Positions 2,662-48,757 of a DNA stretch of 64,000 nt are shown here, piece after piece. This stretch comes from a virus. The notes under the pieces were generated by a model. The model searched no databases and was not told the origin of the DNA. It saw nothing but the letters and a program-made list of their open reading frames with translations. Each line of letters starts with the position of its first letter. Position 1 is the first letter of the stretch. The stretch is taken from UHGV virus genome UHGV-1353844. The stretch is one strand, 5' to 3'. Position numbers and translations under genes: made by a program.

Positions 2662-2862
2662 TCATGACTTCCCTCCAACACACCGCCACTCACATTCGCG
2701 TTGGTGCCAAATTGAACCCCAGGCGAGTCTAATCGCGTACGCTAAGACCACCCATAAAATCGCCGTTATACAAAATAGCACGTACAGAATGGCAACCAGC
2801 ACCATGACGCTAAACCCTAAAACGCTTAGTAACTGACGCCACCAATCAGTTTGCGTAGACAA
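2662..2862 (-). CDS. small membrane protein
   Basis: 66 aa with long hydrophobic stretches; overlaps end of upstream ATPase gene by 17 nt; stop overlaps ATG of a further 36-aa hydrophobic ORF (2555..2665) in ATGA arrangement. Confidence 0.35.
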   Translation of the reverse strand: MSTQTDWWRQLLSVLGFSVMVLVAILYVLFCITAILWVVLAYAIRLAWGSIWHQRECEWRCVGGKS

Positions 2863-5350
2863 TTTTTACTCCTTCGTTGTAAACCGCAGGCAGTGTTACG
2901 CCTTCAGGTTCAATAACACAGTATGCGGCTTCGTTAAGTTTTGAATGAATTTCTGCTTCGTGAGATACCACCAGTAACTGAGAGAACTCACCGGAATTCG
3001 CCAGGGTTTTAATAAACCCGACAAGATTATTTCGGTGTTCCTCATCCATCCCTTCTGACGGTTCATCCAACAGTAGCGGATACTGATGAAGTTTCAGGGC
3101 TTTGTAAGCGGTTAAACGAAACATCAAATTAAAGATGGCCCGCTGCGCTTTCGACCCTTTCCGCACGTCAGGTACCGGTTCAGGATGAGTTTTCAACTGC
3201 ACTGGGAACGTGTAGTCTAAGTCACCGTCGGTTAAGTCACACGGCATGACCCGCATAGGGTAGGTCCAGACTTGTTCGATATATCGCGTCATTAATTCTG
3301 TGATTCTCACGATAGCGTTGTAGAAGTATTTGCGTAATACCCCTTTCTCGGGCGAGAACGCTTGAATCATCAGCTTGTTATTAAATTGCTGCGCTTGTAA
3401 ATCCGATAACTCCTTTTCTAACGCAGTAAGTTGGTTGAGTTCGTTTTCCATCTGACGGTACCTTTCCCGTGCTGTGGTGAACGCATCCAACTTGTTTTCT
3501 CGGGCGTTTAATAACGTTTCGACCACCGTGTTGGTTAATGTTACCTTAACGTCGTTCTCTAAACGCTCAAAAACCGCATTAAAATTGTCTACAGTGACTT
3601 TAAGTTCGTTTAGATAACAAAAGGTATCATTAGCAACTGCGTGCTCTCTACGGCGCTCTGAGAGCGTTTCTGTTGCCTTACCCAAACGTTCCTGCTGGAA
3701 GGCAATTTTCTGCTGTAGTGCACCGTCAACGTTACCTACCGCTGCAACCGCATTTTCCCACTCTTTTTCCGCTTTAGCAAAACGCTGTTTCGTTTCGTGG
3801 TACTCAATTGCGGAATAAAGTTCACGATCGAACTCTGCGCACAGACTGCCAAACTGACTGCGGTTATCCGTAAAGACATTCCGCTCCTGGAGACGTTTAA
3901 AGAACAAACTCAATACCGGGTCTTTCGAGTATGTTAAAACGATTTCCCGTACTTGACGCATGTAATTAACGTCCGACTCTAATTCCGTACGGTCTCGCAA
4001 TACGGAATCAAGTTGAGTCTGTAACGTATTACGTTGCTCCATTTGTCCACGAATGGCTTCTTCCAATTCAGGCAAAGAACGACGGACACCCGGACGGAAT
4101 TTAAATTGACACTGCGGACAATCAACCTCGGCGGTTTCCAAATAGTGATTCCGTTCGTGGTTGAGATTCTGCAATACATTTTCAACACGCTGTAACCTGT
4201 CACGCAACCCAGATGAGTTTTGGTCTAAGGTCAACAGTTTCTCTTCCAGTACGTTCAACCGCTCCGTTGACTTAATAGCATCCAGTGTTGTTCCTAAACG
4301 TTGTCCCCAGACACGCGCATCGGTTGCTGCTTTAAGCTGGTCGATGTTAACGGTCTCTGCAAACAGTTCAGGGAAAAGGTGCTCAGTGTCCCACTGCTTT
4401 ATTAACTCGCGTAGTTTCGCAACCGTGTTTTTTAACCCCTCGTGATTCCGCATCAGGTAATCTTGGCGAGTGGACTCGTCCATCAACAAAGACAAATCTT
4501 TGTTTAGCATGGATAGTTCTGTTTCAGCAGAGACCACCGCTTCACGGGCAGTGGCTTCAATCCGTCGTGCTTCCTCTACTTGTTCTTCCGTAGGTAATCC
4601 GCCACGGTGTTCCAAGATAGCATTAATCGGTGCTTCGATTTTAAGCAATAGCGATTGAATCGTTGCCACCGTAACGTCACGATTCAGACCAGGCAGTTGT
4701 TCAATCTGTTTGTTGAGTTCACGTAAATCCGCTTCTAACGCTTTTAACCGCGTTGCTAATTGCTGACGTTCCTCTTCGTTATCAATTACGCGGGTACGCA
4801 ACTCTGCAATCTTGCGGCTGGTGATTTCAATACCACCGTTTAGCATCGTCAGGTTTTTTCGTAAACGTTGATAAAAACCTAACGCGTAAGTTAAGTCTGA
4901 CGTACTTAAACGGTAGAACCACTTACGGCGCAGTTCCGTTCCTGCATCCGTTAAAAGCACTTCCCCGTTCAGTAACTCTTTAATCTCTTTTGTAATGCCC
5001 GTGATTTCTTCTACGCGAGAGTTATACACTTTCGCATTACCTTGCTCGACGATTTTGGTACCCGTCGTCAGGTTCTCGATATCGCAAACCAATGAGTTGC
5101 CTTTACGTGCAACCTTAAATTTGTAACGATGGTCGTTAACCAAACAGATATTGGTGTAAGAACCCCCGTCACGGAATTCGGATTTCGAAGGTGCGATAGG
5201 TAGAAACACGGACAGTAAGCTGGTCTTACCGCAGCCGTTACCACCGAGGATAATGGTGGTTGGGGAATGGATAGTAAAATCGAAGGTTTCGATTTCGTGT
5301 AACCCCATTCCGGTAAATCCTTTAAGTACAATACGTTCAACTTTTAACAT
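2846..5350 (-). CDS. SMC/Rad50(SbcC)-like ABC ATPase with central coiled coil
   Basis: Walker A GGNGCGKTS near N-terminus; long heptad-rich middle with CPQC (zinc-hook-like); C-terminal signature-like GSKAQRAIF, Walker B LLLDEP and H-loop SHE. Start moved to ATG at 5350 (GGAGG SD 5 nt upstream) rather than GTG at 5368. Confidence 0.6.
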   Translation of the reverse strand: MLKVERIVLKGFTGMGLHEIETFDFTIHSPTTIILGGNGCGKTSLLSVFLPIAPSKSEFRDGGSYTNICLVNDHRYKFKVARKGNSLVCDIENLTTGTKIVEQGNAKVYNSRVEEITGITKEIKELLNGEVLLTDAGTELRRKWFYRLSTSDLTYALGFYQRLRKNLTMLNGGIEITSRKIAELRTRVIDNEEERQQLATRLKALEADLRELNKQIEQLPGLNRDVTVATIQSLLLKIEAPINAILEHRGGLPTEEQVEEARRIEATAREAVVSAETELSMLNKDLSLLMDESTRQDYLMRNHEGLKNTVAKLRELIKQWDTEHLFPELFAETVNIDQLKAATDARVWGQRLGTTLDAIKSTERLNVLEEKLLTLDQNSSGLRDRLQRVENVLQNLNHERNHYLETAEVDCPQCQFKFRPGVRRSLPELEEAIRGQMEQRNTLQTQLDSVLRDRTELESDVNYMRQVREIVLTYSKDPVLSLFFKRLQERNVFTDNRSQFGSLCAEFDRELYSAIEYHETKQRFAKAEKEWENAVAAVGNVDGALQQKIAFQQERLGKATETLSERRREHAVANDTFCYLNELKVTVDNFNAVFERLENDVKVTLTNTVVETLLNARENKLDAFTTARERYRQMENELNQLTALEKELSDLQAQQFNNKLMIQAFSPEKGVLRKYFYNAIVRITELMTRYIEQVWTYPMRVMPCDLTDGDLDYTFPVQLKTHPEPVPDVRKGSKAQRAIFNLMFRLTAYKALKLHQYPLLLDEPSEGMDEEHRNNLVGFIKTLANSGEFSQLLVVSHEAEIHSKLNEAAYCVIEPEGVTLPAVYNEGVKIVYAN

Positions 5351-5380
5351 GTCCACCTCCATATTCACGGAGCGTGGTGT

Positions 5381-8395: not shown

Positions 8396-8857
8396 TTATT
8401 TGTTAGGACGGGTGTGTCCACAGTTCTGGAAGAAAGTTTCAGATAAACGATCGCCTTCTACGGTAAAGTTAGCGGCATCGTTACCATTGATACTCACACT
8501 GAAAGTTTTGGCATTACCGATAGCATTAACGAAAGCAACCCAAGCGAGTTCTGCTTTGTCACTACCGTCCACGGTAGGGATGTTATAGGTTTTGCCGTTT
8601 ACGACAATATCCATCGTGTTATCTTCAGCGTTAGTTGCACCTACGGGTTCCCCGTAATACCAAACCATCCGACCGTAAAATTTGCGATTCGCAGTTTCAG
8701 TGTCACAGTTGATAGACAGTCCGTTTCCGGCGGTGTCTTCGATTTCGTAAACTACCTGGCCAGGGTTTTGTATTTGTTCCCAGCTATTGATAGCGGCGTG
8801 TGCGCTATTGAGGCCGAAAGTTAAAATGGTTATTAAGAATGTGGTAAAGGTTTTCAT
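8396..8857 (-). CDS. secreted small protein (signal peptide)
   Basis: Start moved to ATG at 8857 (AAGGAG SD 8 nt upstream), giving signal peptide MKTFTTFLITILTFGLNSAHA; track ORF extended to 8899. Confidence 0.5.
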   Translation of the reverse strand: MKTFTTFLITILTFGLNSAHAAINSWEQIQNPGQVVYEIEDTAGNGLSINCDTETANRKFYGRMVWYYGEPVGATNAEDNTMDIVVNGKTYNIPTVDGSDKAELAWVAFVNAIGNAKTFSVSINGNDAANFTVEGDRLSETFFQNCGHTRPNK

Positions 8858-8903
8858 TGAAATGCTCCTTCGGGTTATGGGGAAGTTCCCACAAAACATG
8901 AAA

Positions 8904-9275
8904 TTAAATAACTGTGTTGGGGAATGCTTTAATCTGCGTATAGCTATCTCCGATACCTCTTATCATCTCCAGACGTTCTTCTGTAGAAAGGCTTTGGTTA
9001 ATGTCTTTGTCAAGATTGAACAGTGTCAAGAGTTTTGCAATTGCAACCGTCAGGTTGTCGGACAGCTGGTTGTTTTTACGCCATTCTTCGTTACGGAAAA
9101 TAGAGATAAGGTCTTTCACCTGGCCTTCAGCGTGTGGTTTGGCTAACTGCGCGTCACGCTGTTCGATAAGGTATGCTTCGTTGGCAAGTAAACGTTTCAG
9201 GTCTTCTGGGTTAGTGGCAGCGCGAGTAACGATCAGTAATACAACAAACGGGTCTTTGAACAATTCGCTTTTCAT
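8904..9275 (-). CDS. hypothetical protein
   Basis: 123 aa; preceded (in coding orientation) by terminator, conserved AT-rich motif, hairpin and AGGAG SD. Confidence 0.45.
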   Translation of the reverse strand: MKSELFKDPFVVLLIVTRAATNPEDLKRLLANEAYLIEQRDAQLAKPHAEGQVKDLISIFRNEEWRKNNQLSDNLTVAIAKLLTLFNLDKDINQSLSTEERLEMIRGIGDSYTQIKAFPNTVI

Positions 9276-9305
9276 CGTTAATACTCCTAAAATGGTTTTA
9301 GTTAA

Positions 9306-9347
9306 GTGAGAGCTTTTGTACTCTCACCTAAGTAATATATATCTGAG
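9306..9347. promoter_or_regulatory. conserved AT-rich motif (CTAAGTAATATATATCTGAG) with adjacent 7-bp-stem hairpin; promoter-like
   Basis: One of five copies; sits between a terminator and the SD of the gene starting at 9275. Confidence 0.45.
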
Positions 9348-9365: not shown

Positions 9366-9397
9366 GAACAAAAAAAAGGTGGGGTTTACACCCCACC
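9366..9397 (-). terminator. rho-independent terminator (minus strand)
   Basis: GGTGGGGT-TTAC-ACCCCACC hairpin followed on minus strand by T8. Confidence 0.65.
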
Positions 9398-9401
9398 GTT
9401 G

Positions 9402-9980
9402 TTAAACGTCGAATCGATACTGACGAGAATTGATTAAGAATTCTGTATTCAGTTCGATCCATTCGAGCAGGTCACCCAATTGTAAACGGCTTGGGTTTTC
9501 TATCTCGATAGTGGCAACCGGATAAGAGTTTACTAATTCCGTAATTGCCTCGATACCTTCTTGCGTTCCATCGTCTTCTAAGGTAATTATAAACGGCATA
9601 TCGGTACGCTCTGCGTTCGGGTTATACAGACTGACTTTCGTTGCCTGTACAAACGCCGAGTAATCGTCACGTATGATCCTAACGTCAGGCGATAACGTTA
9701 CCCAGAGGTGTTGTCCCGGTTGGAGTTTACGTTTTGCGTAGTTTAAGAACGGATTAGCCGGTAAGTTTTCCAAACCACTGCAAATGTTCCGTAAATGAAT
9801 TCCTCGCGGATCTTTATAGTCCACAGTGAAAATTCCTACCGGCTCACGGTCTGCCTGTTTTACCAGAAAGGCCAATACCGTGTCCGCTCTCTCTGGTAAG
9901 GAAAGCTCTATTCCCTCAAGCTCCCCATCGACGAGGTTTTCCAACCAAACGTCTTTTCTCATTTCTATTAATCGGTACAC
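9402..9980 (-). CDS. hypothetical protein
   Basis: 192-aa ORF followed by strong hairpin+T8 terminator. Confidence 0.45.
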   Translation of the reverse strand: MYRLIEMRKDVWLENLVDGELEGIELSLPERADTVLAFLVKQADREPVGIFTVDYKDPRGIHLRNICSGLENLPANPFLNYAKRKLQPGQHLWVTLSPDVRIIRDDYSAFVQATKVSLYNPNAERTDMPFIITLEDDGTQEGIEAITELVNSYPVATIEIENPSRLQLGDLLEWIELNTEFLINSRQYRFDV

Positions 9981-9992
9981 GGTACCACCTCT

Positions 9993-10766
9993 TTAGTTAT
10001 TGAGATTTACATCTGCGATAAACAGCAATTGTTTGCCGTGCTGCTGTACTTCTTTCCAACCTAACTTCATAGCAGTATCAACAACATCAACCATGCTGTA
10101 ACGGGACATCAAAGATTCTGATTTTGTTCCTGACATTAAGTAAAGTGGCTCATTAGGGCTACGGTCACGTGCGTCAGGAAGTTCACGTACGACTGCCGAG
10201 CCTTCGGGTGCGGTAACAACATGAATCACGGTAAATGGCCTCTTGTGCGTTAAATAGATACGAAATCCAACGTGTTCAGATTCATGAAAGATTTTCTTCA
10301 CAATCACATCTTTCAGTGTTGTTTGAACATCAGCCCCAGGCGATATCATAGACTTGCTGGAAACGAAGCAACGACTATTTTCAATCGTGGAGAAATAATT
10401 ACGTATCGGCAAACTGGCGTTATGATCGCGCAGTTTTTTGCTCAGTAGATCGAAGTTCAGTTCTTTAACTTTTTCTAACCACTCTTTGGCCTGTTGAATG
10501 TAATAACTACCAACAGCGCGATAAGTTAATACTTTACCTGTGCTCACTTTCCAAAGCTTGATGGTTAGTGAGTTTGGCTTATAGCGACGATACTCACCCC
10601 GCGTATGGTTGATGCGCTCGTAGCGCTCTACATCGTTAATCGGTGCAGATTCGACCGATTGTAATTGCAACGTTCGATCTAGTCTATCGGCAAATAGTAG
10701 CGACGTTAGCGGGCCTTCGATCATATACGGTTCGGTTTTAAAGATATCGTCTAAATGGACTTTCAT
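9993..10766 (-). CDS. hypothetical protein, paralog family with conserved C-terminal module
   Basis: C-terminus ...GWKEVQQHGKQLLFIADVNLNN shared with two adjacent genes. Confidence 0.5.
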   Translation of the reverse strand: MKVHLDDIFKTEPYMIEGPLTSLLFADRLDRTLQLQSVESAPINDVERYERINHTRGEYRRYKPNSLTIKLWKVSTGKVLTYRAVGSYYIQQAKEWLEKVKELNFDLLSKKLRDHNASLPIRNYFSTIENSRCFVSSKSMISPGADVQTTLKDVIVKKIFHESEHVGFRIYLTHKRPFTVIHVVTAPEGSAVVRELPDARDRSPNEPLYLMSGTKSESLMSRYSMVDVVDTAMKLGWKEVQQHGKQLLFIADVNLNN

Positions 10767-10833
10767 TTCTATTTCCTTCTTAACAAAAGCCGCGACTAAA
10801 GCGCGGCAGTTAGAGAAAGTGTATTTTCACTTA

Positions 10834-11985
10834 TTAAAGGTCAGCAACAAACAGCAGCTGACTGCCGTACGGTTCGACAGATTTCCAACCGTAATCTTTA
10901 CCGATCGTCGTTAAATGGCCGGTATTTAACTTTTTGTCAACCATCCGCAGACGCATCATTAGCGTATTGGATTCTGCCGCATCGAGTAACAACGCAGGTT
11001 CTTTTTCAGTGCGGTCATCCGCTTTCGGGAAGAAACTGTAATATTGACTTTTGGGCAGATCGATTGACAACGTATAATTTTTCTTTGTAACGAATAACGC
11101 CATCCCTTCGAAATTGCAATCGAAACGATATTCCCAACCCGCTTCTGCTAAAACGTCTTTTAGCATTTCCATGACTTTAAGCTGGTTAACGCTGGGCAGT
11201 CGGTAGATTGCAAGACCACTTGGGAAAATGCGTATACCGTCGACGACACTATCGGTGGTCTCGTCAATAAGTTCAGGATAGCGTTGTGAGAAAATGTGTT
11301 CGCTCTTGCTTTTCTCTTCGACGTCACGAATGAATTGGGCTAATTCGTCTCTTAAGGCAGACATTTGATTTTCTCCTTTGTCTTCAATAATCAGGTGGGG
11401 TTCGCCGCTAATTAAAATGTGGTAAACGAGATCGTCGGTAGAACGGTAAGTGAGCTTGATAGCTTTATCACTTAACATTTCGTAGCGGAAGAAACTTTCG
11501 TACCAGGTCGAGCCGAAATCGTTTCGTGTGAGTTCCTGCTCAACTTTGATGGTTTTTGCTTCAAAACCAATTAACCCACTTAATAACGCGAGTTCTGGTT
11601 TAGTTAAAATAGCTGCACCGTGAAAGGACACTTGCTCAAGCTGAAAACATAAACTACTGACTTTACCGCTTGGGAAGACCTTAAACATAATCTTCCGGCC
11701 GCTACTCTTTTCTCTAACAACGAGTTTACGGTAATTTAGTCCAGAATTTGTGTAAACCTCGAACTGGTAACCTTCAATTTCTTCATCGTAAGTACAGACA
11801 TCGACAGGCGCGATAATCTCATCGTATTCACTCAGTACACAGCAGCCCAAGTTATAACCAAACAACTCGCGTTGTAATGAAGACTCGATGGTTAAGCTTG
11901 GCAGAGGCCAAGTCTGATTATAGCATCTGTCCATCAGTTCTTTTAGGATCTTGACATGTCCTGGTTTAGAAATAATATTTCGCAT
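10834..11985 (-). CDS. hypothetical protein, paralog family with conserved C-terminal module
   Basis: C-terminus ...GWKSVEPYGSQLLFVADL. Confidence 0.5.
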   Translation of the reverse strand: MRNIISKPGHVKILKELMDRCYNQTWPLPSLTIESSLQRELFGYNLGCCVLSEYDEIIAPVDVCTYDEEIEGYQFEVYTNSGLNYRKLVVREKSSGRKIMFKVFPSGKVSSLCFQLEQVSFHGAAILTKPELALLSGLIGFEAKTIKVEQELTRNDFGSTWYESFFRYEMLSDKAIKLTYRSTDDLVYHILISGEPHLIIEDKGENQMSALRDELAQFIRDVEEKSKSEHIFSQRYPELIDETTDSVVDGIRIFPSGLAIYRLPSVNQLKVMEMLKDVLAEAGWEYRFDCNFEGMALFVTKKNYTLSIDLPKSQYYSFFPKADDRTEKEPALLLDAAESNTLMMRLRMVDKKLNTGHLTTIGKDYGWKSVEPYGSQLLFVADL

Positions 11986-12014
11986 TTTTACTCTCCTTTA
12001 GGGTTGTTCGTTAC

Positions 12015-12572
12015 TTAAACGTTATAAGCTAAGAACAACAGTTGCTGACCGAGTTTGCGCACTGTATGCCAACCGTGTGCTTTTGCTGTCCCTACCAATG
12101 TTTCCCAGTCATCAATATCACAACCGTCCTTTTTCAGTTCTGTAAGTAGTGCCTCTGCTTCTTTATCTGTTAGTAGTATTCCTGGGTTACTTAACGTACA
12201 CGTAAGTGGGTTAGGGAAATATGCGTAGCGTCTTGCGAAAGTAAAGTTCACGAGATAACGTGCATCTCCTCTGTCTAGAAGGGTAATAACATTGCCACCG
12301 TAGAACGCACTCGTTACTTTCCATCCGGTACCGGAAAACAGATGACGGAATATTTCGGTAAAACTATCTCCGACACTATGATAATTAAGTCGTGAGAAAC
12401 GGCGTTCCCAAACCACAGCATCTCCATCAAATTCTTCAACTTGAAGACCGGTAATCATTGTACCTGGCCGGATAACGTTAGACTGTATAACGCAAGGATA
12501 ATCAAGTTGGTGTTTACCTGCACCCAGCTTAACAAACTCAATAGCTTGTTGTTTCATTTCGATAGTAATCAT
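12015..12572 (-). CDS. hypothetical protein, paralog family with conserved C-terminal module
   Basis: C-terminus ...GWHTVRKLGQQLLFLAYNV; leader CCATTTTAGGAG shared with genes at 9275 and 45066. Confidence 0.5.
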   Translation of the reverse strand: MITIEMKQQAIEFVKLGAGKHQLDYPCVIQSNVIRPGTMITGLQVEEFDGDAVVWERRFSRLNYHSVGDSFTEIFRHLFSGTGWKVTSAFYGGNVITLLDRGDARYLVNFTFARRYAYFPNPLTCTLSNPGILLTDKEAEALLTELKKDGCDIDDWETLVGTAKAHGWHTVRKLGQQLLFLAYNV

Positions 12573-12631
12573 GATATATTCTCCTAAAATGGAATAAGGG
12601 AGTCACTACGTTCCTCTGGGAAGAGTATGTC

Positions 12632-12690
12632 GGTATACTACGTATACCTCCGCTATTTATATCCGTATACATATTGCCCCCTACCCCCTA
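12632..12690. promoter_or_regulatory. operator-like palindrome GGTATAC-TAC-GTATACC plus tandem CCCCCTA repeats in divergent intergenic region
   Basis: 17-bp perfect palindrome at 12632..12648; CGTATAC half-site again at 12664; tandem CCCCCTA x2 at 12677..12690. Confidence 0.35.
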
Positions 12691-12876
12691 CCGGTATCCC
12701 GAGTAGCAGAATAAAGGGACAATCTGTAAATTTTAAGTAATACTATGATTACCGAGGAATAGCCGGGTTGTAGCGTTTGAACAGTACGATGACTTCGTCC
12801 AATCCGCTTTTCTTCTCAGTAGACATTGGTCTGTCTCCTAATCACATGGTAACTCCGTTTCGAAAGAAACGTGCCC

Positions 12877-12931
12877 ATAGGGGCTGAAGTGCGAGTTCAG
12901 CCCCTATTCACTTAAGTAAAATATATCTGAA
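12877..12931. promoter_or_regulatory. conserved AT-rich motif (CTTAAGTAAAATATATCTGAA) with adjacent 12-bp-stem hairpin; promoter-like
   Basis: Hairpin ATAGGGGCTGAA-GTGCGAG-TTCAGCCCCTAT at 12877..12907; motif at 12911..12931, ~27 nt upstream of ATG at 12959. Confidence 0.4.
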
Positions 12932-12958: not shown

Positions 12959-13924
12959 ATGGAGAAATCCAGCGTTGACTTTTTCTCGATTGGTATCGTC
13001 GCGGAAGACAAACCCCGTGGTACAGATCGGGTAAAAGTGATACCAATTGAAACCAACTTTGCGAACCCTACCGTTGTACAATCAGTTTCCTCAACCGCTG
13101 AAAAGGTACACGATACTGGGGGTGCTATCGACAACCTAACGATTAAAACCGGTAACACGATTACTGCAAAGTGGTGGAAATTTAATTCCAACCGAATTAA
13201 TTCCCCAGACGTTAAGCGAGAAGATTACGTTATCTTGCTACGTCTAGGGCAAACTGATATTTATTTTTGGATTGATTTGAATTTCGCTAACGTTAAGCGA
13301 TTAGAGGATGCGGTTTACGCGTGGTCGGCTGACCCGGAAAACCAGATGGCGGATGACTTGTCGAACGCGTATGTGTTAAACGTCTCAACGATTGACAAAC
13401 ACGTTACCCTAAGAACAAGTATGGTGAATGGGGAGAAAGCGGCGTGGTTATTCCAATTCGATAACGCTAACGGGTCGTGGCAGTGCGTTGACCATAAAGG
13501 GAATAAGTATTACATTAACTCGGTGGAAGACGATTTAGGTTTTGAGAACGCGATGCTCTCGAAAGTGAACATCAACAAAGAAGATGCGTTCATTTACGCA
13601 AAACGTTCGATTAACCTGGAAACGAAAACGATTAATGAGAAATGCGAAGTTCGGAATACCGAAGCGTCGAAATCGGTTACCTTTAAAACAGAAACCTGGC
13701 TAACTGAAGCTTCTGGTTCAACAACGTATAAAACGCCGAACTTTAAGCAAGAAGGTAACGAAGCGATGTTCACCGGTAATTTGGAAGTTGCTAAGAACTT
13801 CAAATACGGTGGTACGGGCGAAGGCGTGGGTATCTTTACGGTTAAGGATGCGGTGATTTCCGGTATTACCTTCAGCGTACACATCCACGACGGCGTCCAT
13901 GGCCCAACTTCAGGCCCACGCTGA
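12959..13924 (+). CDS. hypothetical protein, possibly virion-associated (C-terminal H-x-H motif)
   Basis: 321 aa; AAGGA SD; first gene of plus-strand structural-like block; C-terminus ...SVHIHDGVHGPTSGPR. Confidence 0.45.
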   Translation: MEKSSVDFFSIGIVAEDKPRGTDRVKVIPIETNFANPTVVQSVSSTAEKVHDTGGAIDNLTIKTGNTITAKWWKFNSNRINSPDVKREDYVILLRLGQTDIYFWIDLNFANVKRLEDAVYAWSADPENQMADDLSNAYVLNVSTIDKHVTLRTSMVNGEKAAWLFQFDNANGSWQCVDHKGNKYYINSVEDDLGFENAMLSKVNINKEDAFIYAKRSINLETKTINEKCEVRNTEASKSVTFKTETWLTEASGSTTYKTPNFKQEGNEAMFTGNLEVAKNFKYGGTGEGVGIFTVKDAVISGITFSVHIHDGVHGPTSGPR

Positions 13925-14123: not shown

Positions 14124-14333
14124 ATGGCTATTAAAGAATTCTCTTCTGCTGAACACATTCCTGAAGAGTTCAAGAAAATTGGTAACGTAAGCGCTTTCGG
14201 TGATACCGTAGACGACGTTACTGCTAAGCTGGCTGTCGAAGCTGAAAAGATCGGCGGTGAAGCGTTTAAAGTTATCGGTATTTCCGGTAACAACAAACTG
14301 CACGGTAACGCGATTGTCTACAAAAAAGACTAA
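14124..14333 (+). CDS. DUF1471 (YdgH/BhsA/YjfY-like) domain protein, no signal peptide
   Basis: 69 aa; resembles the enterobacterial BhsA/McbA small-protein family (…AKLAVEAEKIGGEAFKVIGISGNNKLHGNAIVYKK); own SD; flanked by hairpin terminators. Confidence 0.5.
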   Translation: MAIKEFSSAEHIPEEFKKIGNVSAFGDTVDDVTAKLAVEAEKIGGEAFKVIGISGNNKLHGNAIVYKKD

Positions 14334-14350: not shown

Positions 14351-14391
14351 CTCCTACCCTCTTAGAGGGTAGGAGGTTACTTATTTTTTTC
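14351..14391. terminator. rho-independent terminator (bidirectional-like)
   Basis: CTCCTACCCTC-TTAG-AGGGTAGGAG followed by TTATTTTTTTC; lies between convergent genes. Confidence 0.6.
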
Positions 14392-15643
14392 TTGCACGGA
14401 AACGATGCATTTCCAAATAGACTTTTTCCCAGGGACCGAAAGGTCCTACGATTGCCTGTGCATCGTTAATTTTCTTCTGGTTATACCAACGGGCCTCACG
14501 GAACACGTAGTTTTGACTGTCGAATTCCGTGGTGTTAAATACCCATTCCCCTTCTTCCCACGTCGGCCAATAAGCAACGGTTTTACCGAAGCGGTTTAAC
14601 AGATAGCCCAGCTGTTTTTCCCCATCAGGGTCATTAGGATCTTTAAGGTATAAACGTCCCCAGATAGCGTTGTGAGAAACCCCCACAACTTCTTCTTCCA
14701 GATACGGATTATCCACCGTAAAGATAAACGACGACTCGTGGGTTAAAAGCGCCTTTAATGTTTCTGGGTTGCGGATACGCTGTACGCTGGTCGGGGATGA
14801 CAGATCGCCAACACCGATGCTATCCCAGTCGTAATAACGTCGGGTTTCTAACACAGTACGCGCAACGTCAAAGTTCGGTAACGAGACCATAATGGCTTTG
14901 TCGGAGAAGTACCCAGTAACCGGTAACCAGTGTATCAGACCCCCGATAACAAACCCCACGGTTTTACCCGTAATAGATTCCGGTAAAGAAATCATTAACG
15001 TGGAATAATAGTCACGGGTGGTGTCGAGTTTGTTTAGGGTCAAGTTAGCAATGGGGTACGTTTTAACATTCCCCAATTTACTAAAGACCATGCAGCCGAT
15101 ATCCGGTGTCCCTGCACGACGTACTATCTTACCCGCGCCCGGTAAACGTACACCAACTGTATCCGACTGATGTGGTACCCATTGACCGTTGATGTTGTAC
15201 AACACCCCGTTACGGTATTTGTCTTTCCATTTATCTTCGCAAACAATCACAACGTCGTCAGCATCGTCTATACTGAAATCTTGACTGTAATGGTAACCGG
15301 GAGGACACAGGTAGGTTTCTACTGGAACATCGGCATTAATCGATTGGTAGTGTGCCCAATCAAACTCTAACGTCGGTAAACCGTCTTTCAACGCAGAGAT
15401 AACCACACCGGCTTTTTCATTCAGCCAGTCTTGTAACGTATCGGTACGGTTTTGTAAGTCAGCGAGGTGATATTGGCTAATTAACGTATAGTCTTTACCA
15501 AGCGCACTCAGACCGACTTCGAAAATATGGTAATCAGAACACAAGGTTTCTAAGGGTTGCGTGACGTCGATGGCTCCCCAGGTACGGGTCTCTCGAGAGA
15601 AGCCAAAAGCGCTGTCAGGCCGCACTTGATAAGCAGTAGTCAC
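14381..15643 (-). CDS. hypothetical protein
   Basis: Track ORF (to 15859) would overlap the divergent fibre gene by 149 nt; in-frame GTG at 15643 has GAGG ~9 nt upstream, giving a 420-aa product and a 67-nt divergent intergenic region. Confidence 0.4.
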   Translation of the reverse strand: MTTAYQVRPDSAFGFSRETRTWGAIDVTQPLETLCSDYHIFEVGLSALGKDYTLISQYHLADLQNRTDTLQDWLNEKAGVVISALKDGLPTLEFDWAHYQSINADVPVETYLCPPGYHYSQDFSIDDADDVVIVCEDKWKDKYRNGVLYNINGQWVPHQSDTVGVRLPGAGKIVRRAGTPDIGCMVFSKLGNVKTYPIANLTLNKLDTTRDYYSTLMISLPESITGKTVGFVIGGLIHWLPVTGYFSDKAIMVSLPNFDVARTVLETRRYYDWDSIGVGDLSSPTSVQRIRNPETLKALLTHESSFIFTVDNPYLEEEVVGVSHNAIWGRLYLKDPNDPDGEKQLGYLLNRFGKTVAYWPTWEEGEWVFNTTEFDSQNYVFREARWYNQKKINDAQAIVGPFGPWEKVYLEMHRFRARKK

Positions 15644-15710
15644 AGCTCTTTTCCTCAATAGATTCAAGTCATAGTATGAACTCGACGCCCACGGACTATA
15701 GGAGTAGATA

Positions 15711-18700
15711 ATGGCTGTCGTCCTAGACCCACACTTCAAAGAACCGGGGAATAAAATAACCGGTGAAGCGGTCGCCGTCATTGGTACGAAGTACCGAATG
15801 TTGGTACCTGCCCACGCCCCTTTTTTCACCACATCCCTGGTGGTCAAGAGCGGCGGCAAAATACTGACCTTAGGCGACGATTACGTTATTACACACCCGT
15901 ACGAGACCGGTATGTTGCGCACAGCCTATCTCGTGCACGGGATGATTTGGATTGTTAATGACAAATACAAATCGAATTTCACGGTAGATTACCACGCCGT
16001 AGGTTGTGGTGAAGCGACCCAAGAACAGATTACCGCAGAACGCGAACTCAATAAAGATAAATACCCGTCTGCGTGTCAATGGGATACCGTTATCGGCGAA
16101 GTTTACTTTCCACCGGTCGATATTCAGTTCGACTGGGAAAACTGGAAAGGTGAACTGGAATTAATGCAGGCCATTGCAGGCTTAGGTGATTCGTTAGGTA
16201 ACGTGGTGAATCGGGTAGACCCGATTGCACGTAACACGTTAGATATCGAGCATCGTGCTAATGGTACGGTTATCACGTCTGAACAGTACGCAACGTACGA
16301 CAACAAAGGTGGGTATACTTACAATACCGCTAAACGCCGTTTCTCCGTTACGTACAAAACCACCACGTTAAATGAATATTCCCTGTCGATGAAATACCGT
16401 ATTCCGGCTATTTTTCCGAATATGGGGAGTATTAATCCGAACGAACAAATCGATTGGATGTTGTGCTACGCGAACGGTGGCGCAAGTATCCTTCGTCTCC
16501 AATTAAAACAACGTAAAATCAGCCTACGACTGACAGTTGCGTTAGGCAGTGGTTCGACCGATTATGATTATACGTTAATCAACGGTTTGACCGACGATGA
16601 ATTAAAAGGCGAATTAACGTTTAGCGTTGTTCGTCAACCGGGTAACGGTGTATACGTTATCGAGGTGACGACTAACAAACAGTCCATGGACTACACCTTT
16701 AACGTTGACACACCGCCAGACGAATTCTCAGCAGGTTACACCAAAACGGATGTTGCGAAGTGGCTGAAGTACAAAACCAACGTTAACTTAAACTGGTGGG
16801 CGGCTGAGAACGATTATGCTCAATTCCTTGCGTTACCTGGTGCGCCAGAAGCAGACGTAAGTAACGACGTTTATCAGTTAATCGTTAAGTACCATCAGTT
16901 AGTAGAACAGCTCTATCGCAACGCGCCTGCGCACGAACACGTCACCCGTAAGGATAACCCACACGCTGACACCTGGGGTCCGATTCGTGCGTTAGAATTA
17001 AACGGCATTGCATCCGACGCAGCATTAGCCTACGGGAAAACTAAGGAGCAATTAACCGATTACGTAAACGCTAAGTACCCAACGCAGGCAACGTTAACCG
17101 CCCAGAAAAAACTGCTTCGTGAATCAGCGAGCAAGAACGTTAACGGCACGATTACAACGCTCCCCGGCTTTACGTCATTTACTACTGAAGTCGACCCAGT
17201 GTCGATGTCGAAGTACGTGAGTCCTTATTTTAGTGAAAGCTATGTTAGTAGTGGCCACAGATATCACGGTGCGCTTCGTTATACAGGAACGAAAAGCGGT
17301 TTCAGTGCTAACTTTAATGCGGTACCTGCCAACCTGCAAGATATTGACTTTATTGTTACCGGACGTAAAACAGCGTCTGGTAATGAAGCGGTCGGTAGGG
17401 TTGGTTTTCGTTTCTACGAAAATCCCGGTAGTAACTCCGGTAAGTACGTAGAGATTACCGGTGAAGTCTGGTCCGGTACTCTTACTATCGAACTGGCGTT
17501 GCACGGTTACGGTAGTCCTGTACCGGCAGTTCGGTATATTTCGCAAGCTCCTAATCCGGCAATACCGGATGGGGATTTTACGCTACGTTTTCAACTGAAG
17601 CGTACAGGGAATGTGTTTGACGTCGTTATTACCGTAAACAGTAAAACGTATAGCGGTCGGATTAACTTCAATAACATGGACGCTGCGTTAGAAGCATTAG
17701 AGAATCAGCACCACTTTAAATCGCTGATCAATAATGTTGCTGACGGCGTCAATATTAGTTCGCAAAACAAAGGTAACACGGTTACCATTAAGAAAGCACC
17801 TGGCGTTGTTGACGAGAGACGTTTAGGTGCTCAGTTTGTCGTTGATCCGAAATCCATTAAGTTCATCGGTCAAGGTTCTACTGACGTTAACGTGGGTAAC
17901 AACCCGGTAACGTTGCAAGCGGGAGATAACCAGCTTGTGCTATATCCTGATGACCGTGGATTACTGTGGCGCGGTAAGAAACTCTTAGACCCCACTACGG
18001 TAGCGCCGTATTTGCCGGGCAATACCGCAGGCGGTACGGGATTATTCTACGGTGCAACTACAGCTACAGTGGAACTTACGGGTAGCGGGATTAAAGCGTC
18101 GCCGTTTGTCGCAACGTTTATTCTTCCGGTTGCCGAAGACGTTACTACGTTAGCGTGTTGGCAGTTAACGGACGAATTCGGTACGGCTGAAAACCTCGCA
18201 GCAACCCCTGCGTTAATTGAAAAACTGGACGCAGAGTTTACCGGTAAGTTAGTTGCCGCCAAGTCGTACATCAACGACATGCAGCTTACCAGTTCGGTTA
18301 CTATCGACAAAATTACCTTTGGTTTAGGTAACGTTGCGAATACCCCGGACGTTGACTTACCGATTTCTGTTGCACAGCAGACCGAGCTGGACAAATACTC
18401 ACCGAAGGTTCACCAACACCCGTCTTCCGTATTCGGTGTTGCGAACGCAGACACCACGAAACGGGGCCTGATTAAATTCGGTCTGGAAGTGGATGATGCC
18501 ACTTTAGCGCTCGACGGTAGTGTGGTGATGGCGCAGACTTCCCAGATTGAAGATTTGGAGAATACCGTCGGCGGGGTTGACTCGGGTGCGCGCGTTGACA
18601 TTATTCGCTTTGGTAAGTCCGGTAACGACCTAATTGACGTTACGGTTAAAGACAAAATCCTAGTGACACTTCCTGCTTCCACGTATTTCGTTGGCGGCGA

Positions 18701-45096: not shown

Positions 45097-45138
45097 GTGA
45101 GAGTAGCTGAACTCTCACCTAGGTAATATATATCTGAA
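45097..45138. promoter_or_regulatory. conserved AT-rich motif (CTAGGTAATATATATCTGAA) with adjacent hairpin; promoter-like
   Basis: ~80 bp here nearly identical to 9276..9347, including hairpin and leader CCATTTTAGGAG. Confidence 0.45.
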
Positions 45139-48711: not shown

Positions 48712-48757
48712 AGAGCGAATGTAAATTTCGCTCTCCCCTAGGTAATATATATCTGAG
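48712..48757. promoter_or_regulatory. conserved AT-rich motif (CTAGGTAATATATATCTGAG) with adjacent hairpin; promoter-like
   Basis: Immediately follows (minus orientation) the terminator at 48758..48801. Confidence 0.45.

Follow-up and report, generated by a model that had tools for sequence, protein, structure and literature searches.

How three adjacent phage genes come to encode proteins that end alike and begin differently, and what such proteins might do, is the question raised by positions 9993-12572 of the UHGV virus genome UHGV-1353844, of which a stretch of 64,000 nucleotides (nt), hereafter the window, was analyzed. The window comes from a jumbo phage of ~222 kb, of the Salmonella/E. 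coli type and distantly related to SPN3US. Here, we show that the three genes, termed W185, W383, and W257, encode members of one protein family defined by a C-terminal module of ~70 amino acids (aa), joining at least six ortholog groups of the PHROG database that had been kept apart as "unknown." The array is probably a modular, fast-turnover accessory gene family of the phage, diversifying, non-structural, and early. At a probability of about 0.45, we favor the reading that the proteins are early cytoplasmic adaptors, in which a common docking or oligomerization domain carries variable target-binding heads.

A shared C-terminal module in three tandem genes

The list of open reading frames (ORFs) bears out the three genes of the original prediction in coordinates, strand, and length. 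The first, W185 (12015-12572, minus strand, 185 aa), joins a unique N-terminal stretch of ~70 aa to a C-terminal domain of ~115 aa. The second, W383 (10834-11985, minus strand, 383 aa), consists of an N-terminal domain of ~205 aa, a linker helix, and a C-terminal α/β domain at aa ~247-383, and the third, W257 (9993-10766, minus strand, 257 aa), carries a basic N-terminal region with an isoelectric point (pI) of 9.4 and the most "canonical" module. None of the three proteins has a hydrophobic segment, and all are soluble by sequence.

Relatedness of the three C-termini had been proposed from a motif present in all three proteins (GWKEVQQHGKQLLFIA, GWKSVEPYGSQLLFVA, and GWHTVRKLGQQLLFLA), and it is significant in formal pairwise and profile alignment. 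BLASTP gave E = 1e-11 for W257 and W383 (38% identity over 65 aa), 2e-8 for W383 and W185 (22% over 110 aa), and 3e-5 for W257 and W185. The ~50 aa first assigned to the module proved too short. It spans ~65-70 aa, from a P-D..R-S..E-P loop through ..QLLF-x-A, with the consensus ...P-D-x-x-D-R-S-x-N-E-P-x-Y-L-M-S...(about 25 aa)...G-W-x-x-V-x-x-x-G-x-Q-L-L-F-x-A, and the homology of W383 and W185 reaches ~110 aa, beyond the module proper. A profile hidden Markov model (HMM) places the module at aa 191-257 of W257 (9996-10196, minus strand, E = 2e-28) and aa 116-185 of W185 (12018-12227, minus strand, E = 5e-27); in W383 it occupies aa 313-383 (10837-11049) of the C-terminal domain at aa 247-383 (10837-11247, minus strand). 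Of the seven modules used to build the model, three came from the window itself, and its E-values, including those for family membership (5e-29 to 5e-23), are thus partly circular. A six-frame scan of the window with this model returned exactly three copies (E = 2e-29 to 5e-27), the next best match having E = 0.58.

The paralogous modules are only 27-38% identical to one another, so that the duplications behind the array are ancient rather than recent; W185 is the most diverged copy and has lost residues of the DRS..EP loop. The N-terminal regions showed no significant mutual similarity in pairwise comparison, in agreement with the proposed N-terminal diversity. We rejected the idea that they are diverged "helix-GW-strand" repeats, because alignment of the N1, N2, C, C1, and C2 sub-alignments of W383 orthologs with hhalign gave E-values of 0.07 or worse. 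Residues 113-162 of W257 matched a 1636-aa repeat protein (P0008; repeat form ...YF...IFIP.STSISSAADIL.AVK..., without Pfam support) at a phmmer E-value of 1.7e-21, summed from 11 weak matches. We judge this similarity to be spurious, probably a statistical artifact of the repeats.

Predicted structure of the module

AlphaFold2 modeled the whole of W383 with a mediocre mean predicted local distance difference test (pLDDT) score of 69, and aa 247-383 as a compact single α/β domain with a pLDDT of 86.5 in the best of five models (51-76 in the other four). The predicted topology is β-α-β-β-β / β-α-α-β-β, with the module as its second half, so that in W383 and W185 the module would be part of a larger domain of ~135 aa. 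This confidently predicted domain had no known structural neighbor. A Foldseek search against BFVD retrieved only uncharacterized proteins of the same phage group, several per phage. With the whole W383 model as query against the Protein Data Bank (PDB), the best match had E = 2.4e-3 and a template modeling (TM) score of at most 0.15, which is meaningless.

Among 15 aligned modules, the only invariant residues are P, P, G, W, and G, and no catalytic polar residue is conserved; even the DRS..EP loop has lost its R and E in W185 and in copies 2 and 3 of phage Huxley. This pattern points to a structural or binding role for the module rather than an enzymatic one. A PD-(D/E)xK or VRR-NUC nuclease core is not apparent either, as no paralog conserves the D...(D/E)xK residues and W257 does not even retain the corresponding half of the domain in conserved form. 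One kind of binding that deserves consideration is to nucleic acid, by a small winged-helix-like module in early regulators or DNA/RNA-binding factors whose N-terminal domains would serve as effectors or in oligomerization. Comparison with winged helix-turn-helix domains (RepE, Nse1, and CtsR) yielded no significant superposition on a three-helix bundle with a β-hairpin wing and no conserved basic recognition helix or positive surface. Moreover, the module has a pI of 5.1-6.3 in six of the seven members examined and no invariant K or R. We regard a nucleic-acid-binding role as clearly unlikely.

Distribution of the family and absence from the SPN3US virion

No close DNA relative of the window was found among deposited phages. 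At the level of proteins and synteny, it is akin to the SPN3US-like jumbo phages (Seoulvirus, Derbicusvirus, Erskinevirus, and Machinavirus), and its closer relatives, here L005 and L007-L009, are available only as contigs (108-224 kb or less) recovered from samples associated with Salmonella or E. coli. W257 matched phrog_26772, 33648, 24489, and 18480, always at the C-terminal end of the profile; the best E-value was 3.8e-11 for W257 and 1.6e-4 for W383, and W185 is tied to the family through W383 (E = 2e-8). Huxley copies 2 and 3 fall in two further groups, so that the family spans phrog_26772, 33648, 24489, 18480, 27793, and 22167, all of "unknown function."

As had been suggested, the module was sought in other phages. 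By tblastn, W257 matched 32 phage records and the module 58 deposited genomes, every one an Enterobacterales jumbo phage, and an exhaustive phmmer search over 1.84 billion cluster representatives found only about nine with the module, 226-348 aa long and with the module terminal in each. Throughout the family the module lies at the extreme C-terminus, matches ending 0-9 residues before the stop codon, in proteins of 185-423 aa with unrelated N-termini. The W257 module is 38-47% identical to those of SPN3US, Phobos, and Stratton, those of W383 and W185 being more divergent. Two of the three word-index homolog searches with short module profiles gave fragments only, and Pfam, NCBIfam, PADLOC, and a PDB sequence profile search returned nothing above noise for the array proteins. 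The family thus appears, from these searches, to be confined to one group of giant phages. We found no published work on these proteins, which databases hold as "hypothetical," scattered over several PHROGs.

The SPN3US homolog is gp175 (YP_009153469.1, 412 aa), identified by the masses in Table S4 of PMC5105663, and is the sole module copy in that complete genome. It is missing from the 83 proteins detected in purified virions, Table S4 listing gp171, gp173, and gp193, and has homologs in PhiEaH2 and CR5 and none in PhiKZ (PMC5105663). JADA (PhiKZ gp124) was considered as a relative and rejected, being of another size and at another locus. The proteomics of gp175 suggests that the array proteins, too, would be cytoplasmic and not part of the virion, and bears directly on whether they are packaged "ejection" or internal proteins, with the module as a capsid-targeting or assembly signal. 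Jumbo phages of the SPN3US/PhiKZ group do have large paralog families in the head (PMC5105663), which gives that idea a precedent. For SPN3US, it is largely refuted by the absence of gp175 from virions; in addition, the homologs are annotated "hypothetical" and their neighbors "virion structural," and the early-type promoter described below is ill-suited to a late structural gene. We consider packaging highly improbable.

Gene turnover, selection, and recombination

The number of module copies per phage ranges from one to three or four, the fourth being possible only. The module genes number three, in tandem, in Huxley, at least two in ChrisDB, and one in SPN3US, SPAsTU, Stratton, and the Derbicus-like phages. 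In L007, L008, and L009, the locus holds four genes, encoding 244/245, 184/185, 373/383, and 257/259 aa. The 244/245-aa gene is also present in L005 and has been lost from the window, in which alignment with L005 and L007-L009 reveals a deletion junction at 12573-12595 (minus strand), where the start of W185 is fused to what had been the ribosome-binding region of the 245-aa gene. As encoded in the relatives, the lost protein ends in ...RGWGCAEITKDYLLLIKTA, and its standing as a fourth paralog is borderline (4.4 bits in hmmsearch; hhalign E = 9.5e-4 and 5.7e-4, probability 22-30%). In L005, which is 92-96% identical to the window in DNA, the W185 ortholog is disrupted by an in-frame TAA, and the W185 orthologs of L007, L008, and L009 are 44-75% identical to W185. 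Orthologs of W383 form a series from 97% down to 53% identity, and a truncated form of 149 aa (P0038), a free-standing fragment of the N-terminal domain, is encoded on a 217-kb contig.

All intact copies are under purifying selection. The ratio of nonsynonymous (dN) to synonymous (dS) substitution rates, ω, is at most 0.53 in every segment; none approaches 1, and positive selection was detected in no segment. Against L005, ω is 0.06 for W257 and 0.26 for W383. In W383 and W185, the module has ω of 0-0.15 and the N-terminal parts reach 0.2-0.53; in W185 alone the contrast is 0.11-0.14 for the module versus 0.26-0.53 over the rest of the gene. W257 is constrained throughout (ω = 0.06-0.15), with dN = 0 for its module against L005.

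The two halves of W383 tell different histories. Its N-terminal domain (aa 1-205) is 92% identical in L007 and 35% in L008 and L009, and its C-terminal half is 52% identical in L007 and 95% in L008. Alleles of the N-terminal domain are only 34-35% identical, although the flanking genes are 75-95% identical, and P0027/L007 and P0029/L008 are natural chimeras of the 383-aa gene. For a single gene compared in a single pair of genomes, dS is 0.16 in one half and 1.7 in the other, a difference of more than 10-fold. The halves therefore have separate histories, which means recombination between long-diverged alleles rather than rapid evolution in situ, and the N- and C-halves recombine independently.

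The array had been taken for a member of a rapidly evolving class of gene families. That description fits the locus, which is dynamic in copy number, gene loss, a nonsense copy, and divergent alleles of the N-terminal domain; it does not fit the mode of change, in which positive selection was not measurable, old alleles recombine, and the duplications are ancient. Family diversity has its source in old alleles, in the turnover of genes, and in recombination at the level of domains, with selection purifying. The same data bear on whether these are simply dispensable, slowly decaying "moron"-like early genes without a common mechanism, in which the module is kept for the folding or stability of an ancestral domain. 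The deleted gene in the window, the nonsense-disrupted copy in L005, and the truncated P0038 are what decay would leave behind, and in PhiKZ ~70% of the genes are dispensable under laboratory conditions (PMC12676376). Decay is at odds, however, with the purifying selection on all intact copies (ω = 0-0.53), which is strongest on the module, with the retention of at least one copy in all 58 matching deposited genomes of at least four genera, and with the presence of tandem arrays in more than one genus. We consider it an unlikely account of the array as a whole. If the proteins were ordinary dispensable genes of this kind, the array would be of local interest only.

A conserved slot and a candidate early promoter

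On one side, the array is bordered by a baseplate-assembly gene (12959-13924; phrog_3216, E = 5e-112), transcribed divergently from it and accompanied by large tail paralogs. On the other side is a run of small uncharacterized genes that ends at an SbcC/SMC-like gene (2846-5368). This order is kept in the window, SPN3US, SPAsTU, Phobos, CR5, Derbicus, Stratton, Huxley, ChrisDB, and L005-L009, and defines a syntenic slot in which the module gene or genes open an operon that runs away from the baseplate-assembly gene and precedes the SbcC/SMC-like gene.

The transcription unit of the array is headed by an early-promoter-like motif, TCAGATATATTTTAC, at 12916-12930 (minus strand), one base off the consensus TCAGATATATATTAC. 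The 15-mer TCAGATATATWTTAC occurs at four sites in the window versus none expected (9332-9346, 12916-12930, 45123-45137, and 48742-48756, all on the minus strand), and all four lie in intergenic gaps ahead of minus-strand genes, each with a GC-rich hairpin after it; the extended consensus is AAAAATAAT-YTCAGATATATATTAC-YTARGTGAGAG. The exact consensus stands at the same position in L007-L009. In Phobos, CR5, and Derbicus it immediately precedes the module gene, in Huxley and ChrisDB it precedes the second copy, and in Stratton and SPAsTU variants with three mismatches precede the module genes. The whole SPN3US genome has only six near-perfect sites, all of them 70-100 nt ahead of an operon of small genes. 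A sequence at 12737-12745, TAGTATTAC, had been considered as the promoter and was rejected in favor of the motif at 12916-12930, as it is not enriched. Just downstream of the motif, a GC-rich hairpin, GGGGCTGAA-CTCGCAC-TTCAGCCCC (12880-12904, minus strand), is presumably the transcript's 5′ end; relatives retain it, with substitutions in the stem. AT-rich motifs of this kind, detectable by bioinformatics, are described in a review of the RNA polymerases (RNAPs) of jumbo phages as early promoters of the virion RNAP wherever transcripts have been profiled (PMC7598289). On the strength of the motif and this generalization, we infer that the array is expressed early. The motif itself is a strong candidate for a virion-RNAP early promoter with a 5′ stem-loop, conserved in at least five genera, and is a by-product of this analysis.

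The location of the array also invites the view that its proteins are assembly chaperones or specificity factors for the adjacent tail and baseplate-fiber proteins (paralogs of 1440, 1394, and 1728 aa). Tail-fiber assembly proteins likewise have one conserved part and another that co-varies with the fiber, and they would account for several observations: in every genome, the array adjoins the baseplate-assembly gene and the large tail paralogs resembling gp168-170, virions lack chaperones, and the evolution seen here is mosaic and host-range-like. On the other hand, the array is divergent from the baseplate gene and sits behind an early-type promoter motif, and SPN3US has three large tail paralogs yet one module gene genome-wide. 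Nor do the proteins co-vary: over the first ~500 aa of the 1440-aa protein, L008 is 94% identical to the window versus 35% for the N-terminal domain of W383, and the corresponding values for L007 are 89% and 92%. A chaperone function is improbable on this evidence.

An adaptor reading of the array

We favor the reading that the array proteins are soluble, non-virion, early accessory proteins, each consisting of a variable N-terminal head and the shared C-terminal module. The module would dock all members of the family onto one conserved partner or, alternatively, would drive homo- or hetero-oligomerization through the terminal β-hairpin (...GW-x-V...G-x-QLLF-x-A). The exchangeable heads would bind different, variable targets, of which host factors encountered as infection begins are the most likely. 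The set of heads would turn over as genes are gained and lost and as homologous recombination exchanges N- and C-halves among co-circulating phages. The original prediction had placed the array among host-interaction or anti-defense families. The early-promoter-like motif and the absence of the SPN3US homolog from virions fit an accessory role in host interaction. An anti-defense role is plausible, and we put it forward as a hypothesis because the proteins have no link in sequence or fold to a characterized anti-defense or host-takeover protein.

Several observations weigh against the adaptor reading. Searches of Pfam, NCBIfam, PADLOC, a PDB sequence profile, and Foldseek revealed no kinship of fold or sequence to a characterized adaptor or anti-defense protein. 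The N-terminus of W257 is constrained like its module (ω about 0.1), so that "variable head" is not equally true of all three proteins, and the confident domain model is only the best of the five. The case for early expression is complicated by the array motif being one base off consensus and by the absence of a recognizable motif before SPN3US gp175 and the first Huxley copy; absence from the virion is shown for SPN3US only.

A bolder version of the adaptor reading, which we think rather unlikely as it stands, is that the module is a new docking domain recruiting a recombining, interchangeable set of heads to a single conserved hub in the early infection by jumbo phages. Such a hub might be the early infection vesicle, the nascent phage nucleus or import machinery, or a conserved host complex. 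The array would then be a cassette-type counter-defense or host-range system of the nucleus-forming phages of Enterobacterales.

Most genes of jumbo phages are functionally obscure, and early families with a conserved anchor and variable heads are a good hunting ground for host-takeover and counter-defense factors. New here are the unification of the family, the definition of its domain, and the documentation of its population dynamics and expression context. The natural presence and absence of copies and the chimeric alleles provide ready-made genetic contrasts and material for domain swaps, and SPN3US, with gp175 as a single copy, is a tractable amber-mutant system.

Leader, terminators, and neighboring genes

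The 5′ leader of the array contains an ultra-conserved block of 136 nt (12590-12725, minus strand), 97.7-100% identical in L005, L007, L008, and L009, in which the genes next to it diverge to 44-95% identity. The block includes a palindrome (GGTATACGTAGTATACC), a repeat rich in G (GGTAGGGGGTAGGGGG), and the beginning of an upstream ORF (MYTDINSGGIRSIPTYSSQRNVVT...), and could be a shared regulatory or recombination element; searched for structured RNA, it matched nothing in Rfam and no tRNA, and its folding z-score is only -1.3. Elsewhere in the leader, an ORF of 25 codons (MSTEKKSGLDEVIVLFKRYNPAIPR; 12749-12826, minus strand) with a good ribosome-binding site (AGGAGA) may encode a small early peptide. 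It is identical in L005, diverged in L008 and L009, and deleted in L007.

Within the array, a consensus scan marked a terminator-like hairpin in the gap between W383 and W257 (10789-10807, minus strand), a class of site whose counts were not enriched over shuffled sequence. Downstream of W257, in the same transcription unit, lies a 192-aa gene (9402-9980, minus strand; phrog_20879, E = 8e-32), a homolog of SPN3US gp177 with ~30% identity by tblastn to SPN3US 163921-164469. It was considered as a diverged family member and rejected, having no module match and no similarity to Huxley copy 3. The unit is closed after this gene by a strong intrinsic-terminator-like hairpin with a T-run (9378-9397, minus strand), past which comes the next early-type motif, at 9332-9346. 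Inserted right after that motif is a 123-aa gene (8904-9275, minus strand, and 8877-9320; phrog_27024), which is missing from the otherwise 96% identical L005. Beside it, L008 has two YfjT-like secreted-protein paralogs versus one in the window (8396-8857). The region around the 123-aa gene is a second hotspot of accessory-gene flux.

Among the tail genes, a mechanically called 492-aa ORF (14381-15859, minus strand) runs into the beginning of the 1440-aa gene. Its true form is almost certainly a gene of 420 aa with its start at 15643 (phrog_3337, E = 4e-145), whose product is a homolog of SPN3US gp171, an essential tail-associated protein. A 69-aa YdgH/BhsA/McbA-like (DUF1471) protein without an obvious signal peptide is encoded at 14124-14333 (plus strand) and is kept between tail genes in all related jumbo phages, an odd setting for a periplasmic domain of bacterial stress and biofilm proteins.

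Comparison with known systems

The nearest relatives of the array proteins come from jumbo phages of Erwinia, Cronobacter, and Salmonella. They are SPN3US gp175, Phobos gp176, CR5_165, Derbicus gp170, Stratton gp194, and Huxley gp185-187, which have the same C-terminal module (HMM E = 1e-13 to 1e-35). They share its extreme C-terminal placement, the syntenic slot, and, in most lineages, the promoter motif, but differ from the window proteins in that their N-terminal regions are unrelated in sequence. They differ also in number, with one copy in SPN3US versus three in the window phage and a possible fourth in its relatives, and, being uncharacterized, are functionally uninformative.

For the adaptor reading, the closest parallel is with the ANK/PRANC families of poxviruses, in which ankyrin repeats are followed by a C-terminal F-box-like docking module and which are tandemly expanded, early host-range factors. 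The analogy is one of architecture only, in that a short conserved C-terminal module follows a variable N-terminal region and copy number and alleles vary between relatives. Unlike the poxvirus proteins, to which they have no relationship of sequence or fold, the array proteins would act in a host without a ubiquitin system, and their N-termini are not repeat proteins.

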